Shown here one piece after another: positions 7,596 through 36,540 of a stretch of 64,000 nucleotides of DNA. The position numbers were made by a program, and so were the translations under genes. The stretch's first letter is position 1; every line of letters begins with the position of its first letter. The notes under the pieces were generated by a model, which saw only the letters and a program-made list of their open reading frames with translations, was not told the DNA's origin and did no database searches. This DNA comes from Nitrosopumilus sp. (GTDB taxonomy: Archaea; Thermoproteota; Nitrososphaeria; Nitrososphaerales; Nitrosopumilaceae), in the NCBI GenBank assembly GCA_965214775.1, contig OZ243974.1, positions 2,656,001-2,720,000 on the forward strand. The letters are read 5' to 3'.

Positions 7596-9408
7596 GCAAG
7601 ATTTGAATCTCGTTTTGTGATGAGGCACGCTTCATCAATGCCTTGGCAGTGCTTGAGCGCTTTGAAATCTTGATTTGGCCCTTCTTTCCAATTCTGACTG
7701 ATGCGACATATTTGTCATGGACATAGATATCGGCATGCATTGAGGTGTACTCCCTGCTTACAGTTAGAATTAGCGAGGTCTTGGATTCTGAGAAGGTAAA
7801 CGGCAGATCGTTTGTGATTCCAGATGATTCATGACGGTCTTTTGGGACAACATCAATGTGAACTTTGAGTGATTTCTCAATTTCGTTAATGTTTGAGCCG
7901 CCTCTTCCAATAATGGATGGAATGCATTGTTCGTCAACCATTACTTTGACACGATTCTCTGATTGAATTTCAACTTGGGCCTGTGGGTCATATCGTTTGA
8001 AGGTCTCACGAACTTTGTCCTCTGCAAGCTTCTCAATGCCGATCTTCTCAGTCTTTTTGCCTACTGGAACTATTACGTTTTCCTCTCCAAAGGTGTAGAT
8101 TTCGTGCTCTAGTGTATTGTCCTCAAAATTTCTGATTTCTATTACAGGACGTGCAAGATCTGACTCGGTCATCCCGGAAGGAACCTTGACTTTTAATTCC
8201 AAGTCATACACTTTTTCTATTTTTCCGTTCTTGACAAAGACTACGGTATCCAAAACGTTTGGGATGATTCCCAGCTCTATCTTTCCAATAAATCTTTGAA
8301 TTGCATCAAGCGGAGAGTTTGCATGGACTACTCCCACCATTCCGACTCCGGTGAGTCGAAGATCAGCAAATGTTACAAAATCCTCCCTTCTTCGGACTTC
8401 ATCAAAGACGGTATAATCTGGCCTGACAAGCAGCAAAATGTCTGCAGTGTTGTCAAAACTTCCGTCAAGTTTGCTGTACTGTGTAATTCCGGAATCCACC
8501 TGCAGGTCTCTTGGGGACTCGAATGTTTTTACAATTTTACCTTGACTGTGGTAAAAATTTGCAAGGCCGGAGGCCAGCGTGCTTTTTCCTGAACCGGGAG
8601 AACCCGAAATTACAATTCCTTCTGCCCTGTCAGAAAATCTTTTCATCAGTTCTTCAGATACCTTATAGTCACTTAGATCTAATTTCGCTATTGGATGCAC
8701 TATTGTTATCTCAAAGGATTCTGAAAATGGAGGATGGGTGATTGCAATTCGATAGTCACCGTGCTGAATTACAGATGCGCCTGTTTGTGAAACCTCTATG
8801 GTGTTGTCATCTGAGGCATTTACGGCATTCAGGATTTGAGATGAGATCATTTCCAGATAATTACGAGTCAGGATTTCATCAGACAATACGGCAAGAGTAA
8901 AGGTTCCAGGCATGCCTTTCTTGCCCAGGGGCTGCTGGTTCTCCTTTAGATGAACGCTCATGGTTTCAGAATCAAAGAACTTTAGGAACTCCAGATCCTC
9001 CCTTTTGATCTCAGGTTTCAGATATACGGTGCCAACCCCCTCTGCCTGCGCAACCAGATGCTGCACATTGTCAGAAGTGTACAGAATTGCTTCGTTTTGT
9101 TTTGCGAGATCGGTGATAATTGCGTCAATTCTTCCCTTGTGGGCATATTCAATGTCGTCATTTGACGGGTGTGTGCCCGACATGGACACTGTCAGGCCGA
9201 ATTCTTGGGAGATCCTTTTCAAAGTCTTGATTTTCTCCAAGCCGACGAACCCTTGCTCCTTTTTTGTGGATGCCTGGGATTGCAGCTCATCAAAAACAGC
9301 CTGAGGGATGATAATCTCTGAATTCCTAACGGCTCCAGACTCAATTTGTGAGATTAGCTGTCCGTTAATGATCACGCTAGTATCAGCTACAATTTTAGAC
9401 AAATTCAC
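7582..9408 (-). CDS. PINA-type PIN domain ATPase with KH domain
   Basis: N-terminal PIN (VADTSVI), Walker A GSPGSGKST, RPDYTVFDEVR and C-terminal KH (IIGRGG). Confidence 0.9.
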   Translation of the reverse strand: MNLSKIVADTSVIINGQLISQIESGAVRNSEIIIPQAVFDELQSQASTKKEQGFVGLEKIKTLKRISQEFGLTVSMSGTHPSNDDIEYAHKGRIDAIITDLAKQNEAILYTSDNVQHLVAQAEGVGTVYLKPEIKREDLEFLKFFDSETMSVHLKENQQPLGKKGMPGTFTLAVLSDEILTRNYLEMISSQILNAVNASDDNTIEVSQTGASVIQHGDYRIAITHPPFSESFEITIVHPIAKLDLSDYKVSEELMKRFSDRAEGIVISGSPGSGKSTLASGLANFYHSQGKIVKTFESPRDLQVDSGITQYSKLDGSFDNTADILLLVRPDYTVFDEVRRREDFVTFADLRLTGVGMVGVVHANSPLDAIQRFIGKIELGIIPNVLDTVVFVKNGKIEKVYDLELKVKVPSGMTESDLARPVIEIRNFEDNTLEHEIYTFGEENVIVPVGKKTEKIGIEKLAEDKVRETFKRYDPQAQVEIQSENRVKVMVDEQCIPSIIGRGGSNINEIEKSLKVHIDVVPKDRHESSGITNDLPFTFSESKTSLILTVSREYTSMHADIYVHDKYVASVRIGKKGQIKISKRSSTAKALMKRASSQNEIQILLKDF

Positions 9409-9501
9409 TGTAAAGTCAGAAACACGCCCTAATTACCTTTCTAAAAACAACAGAAATTGTGACTGATCGGGCTGCCTTTACGCTTAACTCCAAAAGATCC
9501 C

Positions 9502-9717
9502 AGAGATAATCCGAGATTAGAGACCGTGCGAATTTTTCAAGTAATTTCAGATAGTCTGTATTTTGTTGATATTTTGAGTTGTTTTATACAAATTTATTTA
9601 CAAATATAGCAACGAGCAGAAATAATTGAGGTTTTTTACGTGTAGTTATGACCTACTTTGACTCAAAGACTTCTGCCCGTTGCTATAATCAGAGTCTGCT
9701 AATTTCGAATCAACTCT
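9502..9717. mobile_element. MITE family A copy carrying a nested family B MITE
   Basis: Ends AGAGATAATCCGAGATTAG / CTAATTTCGAATCAACTCT match the ends of the IS5-type element at 44722-45880. Confidence 0.85.
9607..9685. mobile_element. MITE family B (IS630-derived)
   Basis: TAGCAACG..CGTTGCTA ends with TA duplication, matching IS630 at 13547-14652. Confidence 0.85.
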
Positions 9718-9841
9718 GCCCCCAAGGCAGGCAGGCAGTCCAACAGGAGTGTGCGGATGCTCTGCTTAAAGAAAACAGACTCTCAGAACTAAAATTTCTC
9801 ACCCTATGAGAAAAATGGGATCTTTGAGAAGATATGATGCC

Positions 9842-9973
9842 ATGCAGCAAAAAAATGAAGATTTTTACCAAAACTGCTCAAAATATTTTGAATTTTTGAG
9901 GAAAAAAGGCGCTACTGACCGTGATTTTGAGGATGAATACTATTTCACAATGCCTGCAATCTCAAGCCACTGA
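9842..9973 (+). CDS. small hypothetical protein (43 aa)
   Basis: MQQKNEDFYQNCSKYFEFLRKKGATDRDFEDEYYFTMPAISSH, read manually; below the ORF-track cutoff. Confidence 0.5.
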   Translation: MQQKNEDFYQNCSKYFEFLRKKGATDRDFEDEYYFTMPAISSH

Positions 9974-9980
9974 CTGCCAA

Positions 9981-10040
9981 AGAGATAATCCAAAATTAGA
10001 AGCCGTACGAATTTTTCAAGTAATTTCACATATCTTGTAT
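9981..10040. mobile_element. MITE family A left half
   Basis: Matches the first about 60 bp of 16842-16978, then breaks at TGTAT. Confidence 0.75.
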
Positions 10041-10216
10041 TGTAAGAGACGTTATATCAAATCTTATCCGTAGCGGACGCCATATTATCCGTGTTGGGCC
10101 CAAGAGCCGAAGTAAACTTGCCACACATGAGGGCGCGTAAGAGACAGGCTCAGAGTAGACGGACGACGAAATGCCACATAATCGAGGGCGAATGGGAGTT
10201 TTCCGTTCAGTTGGGC
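10041..10216. ncRNA. candidate IS110 bridge-RNA-like non-coding end
   Basis: Closing stem GCCCAA/TTGGGC with two arms, each an outer stem, internal loop and TGCC..GGCG hairpin; adjacent to an IS110 fragment. Confidence 0.5.
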
Positions 10217-10317
10217 ACACACACTTTGATCGTAACCATATGTGTCTCAAAAACAAAATTCAGATGGTACCAAGATAAAAGGCAATGCAAACAGACAGAT
10301 TAGCGCAAAAAAAAGGA

Positions 10318-10506
10318 TATGTGTGAAATCAAAGGCGGAGCAGCAGTATGTCGGCCTGGACGTGCACAAGGAGTCCATCCAGGTCGCGGTGATGGACAAG
10401 GACGGCAAGGTCCTGGGGAATACAAAAATAAGCAACAGGAACAGCGAGATAAGAGAGATGTTTGCAAAGATTCCGGATAACACCAGGTGCGTCATGGAGT
10501 CCTCGT
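10318..10506 (+). pseudogene. IS110 family recombinase, N-terminal fragment
   Basis: YVGLDVHKESIQVAVMD..CVMESS is the start of a DEDD RuvC-like domain; similarity stops after MESS. Confidence 0.85.
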
Positions 10507-11234
10507 ATGCTAAAGAAATAGATGGCCTTCAGTCAGTGCATAGTGGACATGCGTGTGAAATGAACGTCATCATCATCATTATTATTGTCATTACAGTTAG
10601 AACTTTAATCTGCGTTGATGTAGTTGAGGGAGATCCTCGTTTAGTAACTGCAGAACGGTTCTGACAAATGGATGAAGAATGGTACTGAGGGAGATCCTCG
10701 TATAGATAAGTGTCCGACCTTCATTTTGTGATTGTCAGGAAGAGACCCCCAGCCAAAGCCATACTTCACAACACCGTTACGCGTGGAATCCTTATAAGCA
10801 CGACACATAGATACAACATCAGGTTCTTTTTATACTGACAAGCCAACTTTTCTGGGCAACATCTTATGATCAGATGCCACTGCAGACATGGCTGAGCATC
10901 AGATATTTGTGACCAGTCATTGCAGGATTGGAATTTGCTGGGGTGATCCATTATCGGCATCCTAGTCAAAGAATTTCGATGGAAATCTTTTTTGATCTTG
11001 CCTGTTTGATGTAACACATGGACTCCAAATCTACGCCTGCACACCATATGGATCCTGCAAAGGCATTTGTCATGATCAAGGAGCGGGATGAGAAGATCTC
11101 CGAGCTGGAAAAGGAGAACTCCGACATCAAAAAGGAGAACTCCGAGCTCCGGGCAAAGCTTGCCCTGTATGAGAGTCCCAACATGCCCACGTCCACGCCG
11201 TCATTGTACAATAACGCCAGAAGAAAGTTCAGGG

Positions 11235-11327
11235 GTATGAGGTCACGTCCCCTTACTGGCTAGGCATGGAAATCATAATTGTGTATACTAATTCGTGCCT
11301 GATTGGTGGGGATAGGTGACCACATAC
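11235..11327. mobile_element. MITE family E (IS66-type ends)
   Basis: GTATGAGGTCAC..GTGACCACATAC ends; 8-bp duplication GTTCAGGG. Confidence 0.85.
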
Positions 11328-11942
11328 GTTCAGGGAGAAAAGGGGCGAGGATCCCGGAGACAGTCCCGGTGATGCTGCTCGGGGCAAGAAACGCGGCCCT
11401 CCGTGCGGACACCATGGTACATCGCACGGCAACCGGCCATCCATGACATTAAGGTACGATCTTGATTTCAAAATATGCCCAAAGTGCAACATCCAGTTAC
11501 GGATGCTCAAGCCGATCCACAAGCTTGTAAACGACCTGGATGACTCCATGCGCATGCTCACTGCCAATGCCATCATCCAAAACGCGGTGTGTCCACAGTG
11601 CAATACCGTGCATGTAGCGGCCACCCCGTTTCTAAGCGGCACGTCACTTGGGCCCGTCTCACTCTCTCTAATCATGATGTTCTTTGAGAAGGGAAACACC
11701 GACGAGGGCATTGCAGAGTACTTTCAGTATATGTTTGGATTCAAGATGGCCCCAAATACCGTGACTGCCGCCCGGCACGCAGTGGCAGAGGCGATTCAAC
11801 AAAACATGATACAACGCATACAGACATTCATTGCGAGTCGGCCGTGGATACAGATGGACGAGACCGGCTTTAAGCGCGGCGACGGACACATGGGGTACGT
11901 CTGGGTGCTCAACTGTGAGGGGGCGTGCTTTGTGGTATTTGC

Positions 11943-12071
11943 GGGGTTGTCGCCTAATTCCACTTGTTTGACTCAACCTGCACGTTTTTCTGAATTTCCG
12001 CCCTTTTGCACGCCTGATCCACTGGCATCACAGCGGTTTTCAGGAATTCTGGCGAATTAGGCGACAACCCC
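11943..12071. mobile_element. MITE family F
   Basis: 18-bp inverted repeat GGGGTTGTCGCCTAATTC; 9-bp duplication GGTATTTGC. Confidence 0.9.
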
Positions 12072-12335
12072 GGTATTTGCAGATTCCCGGTCCTCTGAGG
12101 TACTGCACACGCACTTTGGATGGCTGGATCCCAGGACTCCCATAGTCATAGACGGGCTGGCCCAGTACAAGATGTTCTTTGAGATAATCCAGAGGTGCTG
12201 GAGGCACCTTCTGGCATATGCAGAAAAGCTTGCAGTAAAGATGCCCGAAGGCGATAACGAGAAAAGGTACGACTTGCTGCTGGAATTTTACAGGAAGGTA
12301 AAAAAGATCAAGACGCTTGCGCCGCTTACATACAT

Positions 12336-12458
12336 CAGTACTTCCTAGGTGTACTTTTACAGGCACAGTAATTACGTAATTTGGAGAAGATCTTATGCGT
12401 AAACGAAGTTAGCGGCTATGGCGTGCCGGGTCTGCAAAAGCACATCTAGGAAGTACTG
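12336..12458. mobile_element. MITE family D (ISH3-like CAGT ends)
   Basis: Inverted repeat CAGTACTTCCTAG; 4-bp duplication ACAT. Confidence 0.85.
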
Positions 12459-13315
12459 ACATGGAGCTTTCAAGGGAGGCATACAAAATAATCATTACAT
12501 ATGAGGACAATCACGTGCGCACACACATGCAAAACGCCATACCCAACATGTTTACGTGTCTGGCGCATCGGGAAATGCCACTGCACAACAACGGTACGGA
12601 GCGGTGCATACGCGACGGGATCATACCCCAGCGCAATGCGCGCCACAAGATCGTAACTGACGGTGGAAGAAAGACGGCTTCTGCGCTGCTGACATTTTCG
12701 ATGACATGCCGCAAGCAAAACATACATCCTGCCGGCGGACTCTTGGAATACCTGCGGAATCCGGGCTGGGATATCTTTGCAGAAGCAGGAGATGATAATG
12801 ATGATGCACGCCTGCTGTCCTCGCTTGTCAATACGGACGGTACCAGATACAGTGTCTTTGAGTGTCCCGGACCACCGCCGGCGTGGCCGCCTGTAGTCGC
12901 AGATGATGACGCAGGCAGAAGAGGAGGAGCGGTACGCCGGGACCGGACGGCCGTCGTACCAGTAGCAGCAGCTCCGATAGTAACAACATGATCCGTCTGG
13001 CGCCTACGGGACGGCATAACCCGCAGCTTCATATCCGAAGATCTGACCGTGTAGGCAAGTCTGCCAATTGACAACGCCTTGCAAGTGTAACAATTTCTGA
13101 CTGCATGGCAAGTGCCGTATGCCAATCTGTTGTATGCACGGCGTCAGTCAGTCTTGCATGTACAAAGGATGTGTCAGTAACAGTGTATCTAGTCTGTCAC
13201 AACAGATGATGCGAAATGATCAAAAAGTTCTTGGAAAAAAGTTGGCTTGTCAGTATAAAAAGGACCTGATGTTGTACTGTCCGTTTCTTTTGCCATGCCA
13301 TTGCGCCGGTTAGGC

Positions 13316-17079: not shown

Positions 17080-17250
17080 GGGAAGACTGCCCTCCCTAGT
17101 TGATTTTTTATGACCACCTGATCTCCCATATGAAATCGTACCTAATCCTACCGTGGACCCTTGCCAGCGTGATGTTCCGAATCAGGACGATGTTGCTATG
17201 CGATGCATCCTCTTATACTTTCTCTGCGTGAGAGCCTTGTTCTCATACGC
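17080..17250 (-). mobile_element. probable IS110 C-terminal remnant with downstream non-coding end
   Basis: AYENKALTQRKYKRMHRIATSS stop resembles archaeal IS110 C-termini (from memory). Confidence 0.4.
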
Positions 17251-36489: not shown

Positions 36490-36540
36490 CCTTTTATTTT
36501 AGTACAATCTGAATTTTGTTTTTGAGACACATATGGTTAC

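Follow-up and report, generated by a model that had tools for sequence, protein, structure and literature searches.

A probable bridge RNA with target and donor guide loops in the truncated left end of an IS110-family element of a Nitrosopumilus genome

The bridge RNAs of IS110-family insertion sequence (IS) elements are an established kind of RNA, described in 2024. IS621 carries its bridge RNA in a left end of 191 bp, and the passages on its loops place the core-pairing bases at the 3' end of each loop strand, with two handshake bases 3' of them (Durrant et al. 2024, PMC11208160; Hiraizumi et al. 2024, PMC11208158); in the corresponding passages of the former paper, the sense strand of IS621 reads right end-CT-left end (PMC11208160). 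Passages of a 2026 preprint report 32,190 bridge RNAs predicted with 86 models, and 662 archaeal IS110 recombinases have been catalogued in a preprint, whose passages on them do not describe the RNAs. A literature search found no paper on bridge RNAs of Nitrosopumilaceae, supplementary tables, which might list the family or elements with an AG core, being outside that search. Here we analysed a stretch of 64,000 nucleotides (the window) from Nitrosopumilus sp., positions 2,656,001 to 2,720,000 of contig OZ243974.1 in assembly GCA_965214775.1; the genome searched is a single contig of 2,833,656 bp (G000:C1), of which the window is C1:2656001-2720000. Positions 10047-10231 of the window are very probably the left end of an IS110-family element of a Nitrosopumilaceae-type archaeon, encoding a bridge RNA on the plus strand. 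The observations that carry this reading are the anatomy of the element, the covariation of the RNA structure, the co-variation of the guides with flanks and element ends, and the over-representation of the predicted target in the genome.

When positions 10041-10520 were searched against the genome, this part of the window resolved into three independent repeats, namely the end of a miniature inverted-repeat transposable element (MITE), a unit of 190 nt (10042-10231) with about ten genome copies, and the left end of a second element, IS-B. Eight of the nine other aligned copies of the 190-nt unit read past ..CACTTTGATC into a ribosome-binding site and MINIGIDVHK on the plus strand (some of them degenerate), the continuation being AAAAAGGAGGTGATAAAATG ATC AAC ATA GGA ATA GAC GTT CAT AAG (= MINIGIDVHK). 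MINIGIDVHK represents the N-terminus of a plus-strand DEDD recombinase of the IS110 type, and because the other copies continue into it, we consider 10047-10231 as the long 5' non-coding left end of an element, here termed IS-A. IS-C is a related subfamily, about 70% identical to IS-A in the left-end region. An earlier note on this DNA, made from the letters alone, had proposed an archaeal IS110 bridge RNA with two guide loops; the closing stem, both arms and the 9-mer repeat which it had read are all present as described, and its junction with the flanking MITE was correctly placed. The features of the unit and its left flank are as follows:

10000-10041 (no strand assigned): MITE end, an unrelated high-copy repeat forming the far left flank; dozens of genome matches (84-97%), all stopping at 10041
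10042-10046 (+): left target half GTAAG, left over from the MITE terminus that was targeted (GTAAG-AG-TTTAC); other copies read GTA[A/T/C]G at this place and are unrelated further left
10047-10048 (+): core dinucleotide AG (CT on the opposite strand), common to both junctions and the empty site
10049-10231 (+): IS-A left end, 5' non-coding, cut at 10231 just 5' of the ribosome-binding site and ATG of other copies
10054-10062 (+): sub-terminal inverted repeat ATATCAAAT, partner of right-end ATTTGATAT
10098-10103 (+): closing stem, 5' half, GCCCAA (helix 1)
10104-10151 (+): arm 1, target-binding, GAGCC-GAAGTAAACT-TGCC-loop-GGCG-CGTAAGAGACA-GGCTC
10104-10108/10147-10151 (+): arm 1 outer stem (helix 2)
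10119-10122/10132-10135 (+): arm 1 inner stem (helix 3), with the apical loop at 10123-10131
10109-10118 (+): target loop 5' strand GAAGTAAACT, reverse complement of the core and right target half (AG-TTTAC..)
10136-10146 (+): target loop 3' strand CGTAAGAGACA, equal to the left target half, the core and the first two element bases (handshake-like)
10159-10206 (+): arm 2, donor-binding, ACGGA-CGACGAAA-TGCC-loop-GGCG-AATGGGAGTTT-TCCGT
10159-10163/10202-10206 (+): arm 2 outer stem (helix 4)
10172-10175/10187-10190 (+): arm 2 inner stem (helix 5), with the apical loop at 10176-10186
10164-10171 (+): donor loop 5' strand CGACGAAA, with partial complementarity to bases 2-5 of the element, counted after the core (CGTT, one G.T)
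10191-10201 (+): donor loop 3' strand AATGGGAGTTT, equal to right-end ..ATGGG, the core AG and TT (first bases of the right target half)
10211-10216 (+): closing stem, 3' half, TTGGGC (helix 1)

Arm 1 is the target-binding loop. Its 3' strand contains GTAAGAGAC (10137-10145), which is identical to 10042-10050 and consists of the left flank GTAAG, the core AG and AC; it is a target guide with a handshake-like extension and not a donor guide matching the element end, as the earlier note had it. Taken alone, the window copy says little against chance, a direct repeat of 9 nt being found in 206 of 5000 shuffles of the 176-nt stretch. The evidence beyond chance comes from the other copies, with their covariance-model matches, their compensatory stems and their loops that change with the insertion sites. 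Across copies, the 3' strand repeats the sense strand of the left junction, that is four to six flank bases, AG and the first two element bases. An exact match of at least 8 nt to the left junction is present in 30 of 51 distinct copies, compared with 33 of 2480 non-cognate pairs, and none of 2000 permutations reached 30 (the best permutation gave 8). About 20 different left-flank words are represented among these matches, for example (flank/junction, then loop strand):

TCAGT/AGAC: TCAGTAGAC
CAAAC/AGAC: CAAACAGAC
TCTTAT/AGAC: TCTTATAGAC
CCGGC/AGAC: CCGGCAGAC
TGAAC/AGAT: TGAACAGAT
TGGG/AGCC: TGGGAGCCT

The 5' strand of the window RNA alone predicts a right flank AGTTTAC, and four IS-A right ends in this genome (..TTTGATATGGG) are indeed directly followed by AGTTTAC, as is the right end of an intact element in another genome (L035, a run of 7). 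Among the 13 distinct right ends that pass an 8-nt inverted-repeat filter, a run of at least 5 in the right flank occurs in 6 of 13 cognate and 9 of 152 non-cognate pairs, and the observed value was reached in none of 5000 permutations. Five loci of the ..ACACATGGG right-end subfamilies (L072, L073, L088, L069, L064) are outside this count because they fail the filter; they show runs of 5, 6, 7 and 2 and one bulged match. Both target-loop strands pair with the halves of the insertion site around the core dinucleotide, as in described bridge RNAs. Joined together, they give a composite target GTA[AT]GAGTTTAC (GTA[AT]G-AG-TTTAC), of which the genome holds 74 copies where about 2.7 are expected (about 27-fold). 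The left context of these sites is variable and their right context conserved, which identifies the composite target as the terminus of a MITE. The window's own version of the target, GTAAGAGTTTAC, occurs 60 times in the genome. Targets predicted from loop variants of IS-C are likewise over-represented: TCAGTAGTTCC is found 26 times (1.35 expected), at the termini of several repeats, and CAAACAGATTA 9 times (1.35 expected), 8 of these 9 being located in the left end of IS-B.

Arm 2 is the donor-binding loop. The right junctions of IS-A read ..GATATGGG/AG/TTTAC, and there is almost no variation within the family in GAATGGGAG or in the right ends. For the 5' strand, pairing with left-end bases 2-6 has a cognate mean of 3.73 of 6, compared with 2.85 for non-cognate pairs (26 distinct pairs), and none of 5000 permutations reached the observed sum; of the four guide strands this one is the weakest. 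A full complement of the left end including the core was sought in the donor 5' strand, and just partial pairing was found there. The core is carried on three loop strands (CT at 10117-10118, AG at 10142-10143 and AG at 10197-10198), and the donor 5' strand ends with AA (10170-10171) where CT would be needed. Strands of both arms thus match target or donor sequences, and the two guide loops of the earlier note stand, with their roles exchanged.

The predicted structure is borne out by compensatory changes. Left ends from this genome and four others, 25 in all, were aligned with MAFFT and not fitted to a model. From this alignment RNAalifold recovers the closing stem, the two arm-1 stems and, for arm 2, the inner stem; changes on both sides are seen at 9 of the 24 predicted pairs. 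A covariance model built on the five-helix structure matches at 31 places in this genome, and 19 of 150 further genomes of its family, including the unpublished G077, also have matches; in a phylum-wide sample searched with stricter filters, 3 of 19 same-family genomes and none of 131 genomes from 33 other families have a match. In the model-fitted alignment of 53 matches (51 distinct), 94.1% of cells are paired and 17 of the 24 pairs change on both sides. None of 500 shuffles of this alignment reached any of five measures, and pairing drops to 30-48% (at most 48.3%) when the 3' partners are slid by 1-3 columns. The closing stem (helix 1) has 95.1% of cells paired and changes on both sides at all 6 of its pairs; the values for the stems of arm 1 are 98.4% and 5 of 5 pairs (helix 2) and 99.0% and 2 of 4 pairs (helix 3), and for arm 2 the inner stem (helix 5) reaches 97.5%. 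The outer stem of arm 2 (helix 4) is only 82.2% paired because the alignment shifts the IS-C rows by one column; once each row is allowed its own register, the complete stem of five pairs forms in 26 of 30 distinct rows, a figure favoured by the choice of the best register. Two truncated copies (L057, L038), one from the unpublished genome G077 (L078) and duplicates of identical copies were left out of alignments A1 and A2. Two stem-loops, each with a large internal loop and with covarying stems, are found here as in IS110 bridge RNAs, and they are situated in the non-coding end of an element encoding DEDD and Transposase_20 domains.

Both the left junctions (../AG/ACG..) and the right junctions (..ATGGG/AG/..) hold AG, and empty sites contain a single AG, from which it follows that the core is AG on the sense strand. 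That the bridge RNA is on the plus strand, the same as the recombinase gene, is supported by U.G pairs, by gene orientation and by guide geometry. At two positions in the stems, 48 and 46 of the 51 distinct sequences have U.G; these pairs would become C.A on the minus strand, which disfavours that strand. The N-terminus of a recombinase lies 16-29 nt 3' of the structure, on the same strand, in 38 of the 53 model matches; this figure was obtained with tblastn, a regex motif screen having under-counted (35 of 53). With regard to geometry, only in a plus-strand RNA do the bases that pair with the core come last (3') within the loop strands, as in the passages describing IS621, and the geometry given there fits a plus-strand RNA only with the DNA read on the antisense strand (core CT). 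The polarity described for IS621, with CT on the sense strand and 5' loop strands that equal the sense strand of the left target or the right end plus core, was not found: the order here is right end-AG-left end, and the sense-identical guides are the 3' strands. For these two reasons the crossover site appears to be inverted with respect to the RNA and recombinase genes relative to IS621, a comparison made with the text on IS621 and not with its sequence.

In other respects the system resembles IS621, as far as the passages cited describe that element. A long left end (about 190-200 nt here) precedes a recombinase with DEDD and Ser domains, and the right end is short; the target loop comes first and the donor loop second; the two strands of a loop are directed at opposite DNA strands flanking a 2-nt core, although the donor 5' strand is complementary only in part; bases pairing with the core are at the 3' ends of the strands, followed on the 3' strand by two handshake-like bases; the core is CT/AG, and repeated sequences are targeted. 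Besides the inverted polarity, the differences from IS621 are the closing stem, which here encloses both arms, the donor loop 5' strand, which here lacks the core pairing reported in those passages, and the archaeal host. The sub-terminal inverted repeats of 9-10 bp are longer than the 2-3 bp stated there for the IS110 group and rather resemble those of the IS1111 group (7-17 bp), which also targets the ends of other mobile elements or repeats; however, IS1111 elements have a short left end and a long right end containing the RNA, in contrast to the left-end RNA found here (passages of PMC11208160). These elements are thus variant in their apparently inverted polarity, in the closing stem that surrounds the two arms, in combining long sub-terminal repeats with a left-end RNA, and in one donor strand without core pairing. 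An RNA in a long right end, as in the IS1111 group, was not found for IS-A and IS-C, whose right ends are short; two relatives (L064, L073) have about 360-410 nt after the gene. The seekRNA of Siddiquee et al. is reportedly the bridge RNA of the IS1111 group. Bacterial IS110-family elements that target the terminus of another transposable element are a further likeness, although these are different elements and were compared by title alone.

IS-C is present in three intact copies of 1336 bp with an ATG at position 200, a protein of 359 amino acids and 57 nt of non-coding sequence after the stop codon, so that its left end measures 199 nt and its right end 57 nt; the protein contains PF01548 (98.9 bits) and PF02371 (75.1 bits), that is, a DEDD RuvC-like and a Transposase_20 domain. 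IS-A right ends read ..AATTTGATATGGG, and the inverted-repeat pair of IS-C is ATATGAAATC / GATTTCATAT, its C/G difference to IS-A being mirrored at both ends. The sub-terminal repeat is TATA-like (10052-10058) and may be an archaeal promoter element; a sigma-70 junction promoter cannot apply because the host is archaeal. All 16 of 16 loci retrieved with recombinase relatives come from metagenome-assembled genomes of Thaumarchaeota, Nitrosopumilaceae, Nitrosopumilus or Nitrososphaera, which supports the attribution to archaea made in the earlier note; one relative shares its flank with a copy in this genome (L039 and U1191).

The window copy itself is a truncated relic. It lacks the recombinase gene and the right end, and tblastn found no recombinase N-terminus within 1500 nt downstream. 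Intact IS-A recombinase genes are absent from this genome, which contains just broken pieces (contig positions 403965-405124 and small fragments); the three intact IS-C recombinases have 54% amino acid identity to that of IS-A. The earlier note had considered the cognate enzyme unresolved because one loop does not match the present flank and the adjacent recombinase fragment is on the plus strand; this fragment (ORF 10242-10664, of which residues 37-106 are matched by PF01548) belongs to IS-B, and the enzyme of IS-A is seen in intact copies elsewhere. Two further observations concern the IS-A and IS-C genes. At L012 (G000:C1:1099094-1102284; element at 1100381-1100784, minus strand), a chimeric copy combines an IS-A-type left end 95% identical to the window unit with an N-terminus 96.9% identical over 64 amino acids to the IS-C recombinase. 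At L009 (G000:C1:833288-836477), around locus position 1746, the target MITE (GTAAGAGTTTACCCCTCAGGCGAC..) sits within the IS-A recombinase gene, and in several copies this insertion falls after about codon 18; as the terminus of the MITE is the target of IS-A, each of the two elements interrupts the other.

Transcription, protein binding and recombination are inferred, and the following sequence of steps is proposed. The target-loop 5' strand would pair with the sense strand of the core AG and the right target half TTTAC, while the 3' strand would pair with the opposite strand of the left target half GTAAG and the core, its extra AC matching the first element bases in the manner of the IS621 handshake guide. 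In the donor loop, the 3' strand would recognise the right end ..ATGGG, the core and TT, and the 5' strand would pair in part with left-end bases 2-5. Acting with the DEDD/Ser recombinase, whose gene lies just downstream in intact copies, it would be the RNA that unites the circularised element (right end-AG-left end) with GTAAG-AG-TTTAC, strand exchange taking place at the AG/CT core and the target being the terminus of the abundant MITE.

Several points weigh against this reading. No exact 8-nt match was found at 21 of the 51 left junctions, most of which are off by one base. At the right junctions, just 6 of 13 match over at least 5 nt, several need a bulge of 1-2 nt, and one (C2634) fails with a run of 2. 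Pairing by the donor 5' strand is weak (3-6 of 6) and, in contrast to IS621, leaves out the core, and the donor-loop handshake bases, compared by eye with the bases that begin the right target half, fit IS-A and some IS-C copies and not most subfamilies. The model-fitted alignment (A2) leans towards the model, although the unfitted alignment contains the same compensatory changes; moreover, the copies are kin, and the permutation counts therefore overstate their independence. The fold of the single copy is no more stable than that of shuffled sequences (z = -0.19 for the plus and +1.03 for the minus strand); single-sequence folding was not taken as evidence, being uninformative for RNAs whose internal loops are large. 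A search of Rfam 15 gave no match at E <= 1 in 9000-12000 and none at gathering score in the whole window. Finally, the window copy may do nothing, as it is truncated and the genome contains no intact cognate recombinase.

Three alternative readings are unlikely. In that of the earlier note, the RNA comes from the minus strand; arm 2 would then bind the target, and arm 1 would bind the donor by a guide matching the element end. The 9-nt identity of 10137-10145 and 10042-10050 can be read as minus-strand complementarity to the element end, and the minus strand also folds into the closing and arm stems; yet this strand would convert the two conserved U.G positions into C.A, would run opposite to the recombinase gene that follows the structure, and would put the core-pairing bases at the 5' end of the loop strands, so that the geometry described in the IS621 passages fits in neither DNA orientation. 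The positive z-score of the minus-strand fold speaks against it as well, and the variable part of the arm-1 strand tracks the flank and not the element. We regard a minus-strand RNA as very improbable.

A role of the structure as a cis-acting 5' leader of the recombinase mRNA, affecting translation or stability, or as an end recognised by protein, in either case with no guiding by DNA pairing, would suit its position directly upstream of the ribosome-binding site, and the conserved inner stems and GAATGGGAG could be protein-binding sites. Such a leader gives no reason why the loop strands should change with some 20 different insertion sites, nor for the prediction of the right flank or the over-represented composite target, and it is an unlikely explanation, if slightly less so than the others. 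It is also conceivable that the RNA is a bridge RNA whose loop took its sequence from the insertion site, for example through repair or gene conversion during integration, instead of selecting that site. Covariation alone has no direction, and one derivative that abuts the loop-coding DNA of another copy (G000:C1:2788411/2788412) indicates that loop DNA can join in recombination. However, many copies with the same loop are found at different places with the same target word (74 empty sites), as selection by a fixed guide predicts; the loop is separated from the junction by about 90 nt of element sequence; and the mechanism established for IS621, according to the passages on it, is directed by the guide (PMC11208160). 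Copying of the loop thus has a very low probability too, and a bridge RNA that guides insertion from the plus strand accounts best for the observations. Those on which the earlier note had made its proposal depend, namely linkage of homologues to IS110 genes, covariation of stems and tracking of target and donor by the loops, all turned out in favour of an IS110-family bridge RNA.

The genome also contains IS-C derivatives of about 480 bp that have no recombinase gene and keep the whole bridge-RNA gene and both ends:

G000:C1:181545-182022
G000:C1:807934-808417
G000:C1:2787934-2788411
G000:C1:2726222-2726708
G000:C1:2784516-2785002
G000:C1:2831293-2831779

Loci of these derivatives are L054 (G000:C1:181485-181805), L055, L053, L059 and L060. 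The derivatives carry other target loops (..TTAT/ATC.., CAAAC/ATT..) than the three intact IS-C copies do (..CAGT or CCGT / TTCC), and in several of them the flanks match their own loops. Two sites outside the window have the form of footprints, in which the last 16-17 nt of a right end stand between two AG dinucleotides and the target halves (left half-AG-right-end remnant-AG-right half): CGTAAG-AG-CATAATTTGATATGGG-AG-TTTAC for IS-A (G000:C1:1916160-1916215, minus strand) and TCAGT-AG-GTACGATTTCATATGGG-AG-TTCC for IS-C (G000:C1:1209780-1209830, minus strand). In both IS-A and IS-C, the native right end has an AG just before the piece that remains in the footprint, and it looks as if recombination between the core of the left junction and this internal AG had deleted almost the whole element. 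Also outside the window, at G000:C1:2788366-2788497 (plus strand), the right end of an IS-C derivative is directly followed by AGACTGACTCG.., which is the target-loop 3' strand of another bridge-RNA gene, and a second, weaker model match (64.9 bits) begins there; in this case recombination seems to have used loop-coding DNA, which duplicates half of a target, as its site.

The right-hand neighbour of the IS-A left end belongs to the second IS110-family element, IS-B, whose full-length copies measure about 1380 bp with open reading frames of 377-378 amino acids. Its left end 5' of the reading frame is only about 85 nt long and its right end is longer, and its ends carry the inverted repeat ATATGTGTC / GACACATAG. 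IS-B copies with 96-100% identity begin exactly at 10232, with unrelated left flanks; IS-B was mapped by BLAST because its alignment is scrambled by nested insertions, and its positions 1-291 and 1085-1379 correspond to 10232-10504 and 10507-10813 of the window. No obvious common word was seen among the 23 left and 12 right IS-B flanks inspected. Other features of the window are:

10232-10813 (+): IS-B, a 582-bp internally deleted IS110-like derivative, which adjoins and truncates the IS-A left end at 10231/10232
11377-13277 (-): copy of a 1620-bp repeat family in three pieces (86-97% identity); this family interrupts IS-C copies elsewhere, e.g. at G000:C1:1252764
17125-17243 (-): solo last 119 nt of IS-C (96.6% identity), ending ..TTCATATGGG, then AGATCAGG
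36490-36540 (-): 51-nt piece of the IS-B left end

As bridge RNAs are already a known kind, the finding as such will be no surprise to specialists. It nevertheless represents a clean natural case, in which the loop strands alone predict the insertion site for elements with 31 copies in one archaeal genome of 2.8 Mb; the site predicted for the window RNA proves to be the end of a MITE with dozens of genome copies, and related loops point at other repeats, so that natural reprogramming of the target loop is visible at short evolutionary range. A more far-reaching interpretation, which we put forward only tentatively and hold to be somewhat less probable than its opposite, is that a polarity-inverted bridge-RNA system of ammonia-oxidising archaea has diversified within one genome, its loops being reprogrammed for different MITE and IS termini and its guide-carrying, non-autonomous derivatives of about 480 bp being mobilised in trans by the three intact recombinases. 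If true, the inverted polarity, the archaeal promoter context and the guide-carrying derivatives would provide a variant architecture for the engineering of bridge recombinases, and archaeal IS110 elements would gain a description at the RNA level.

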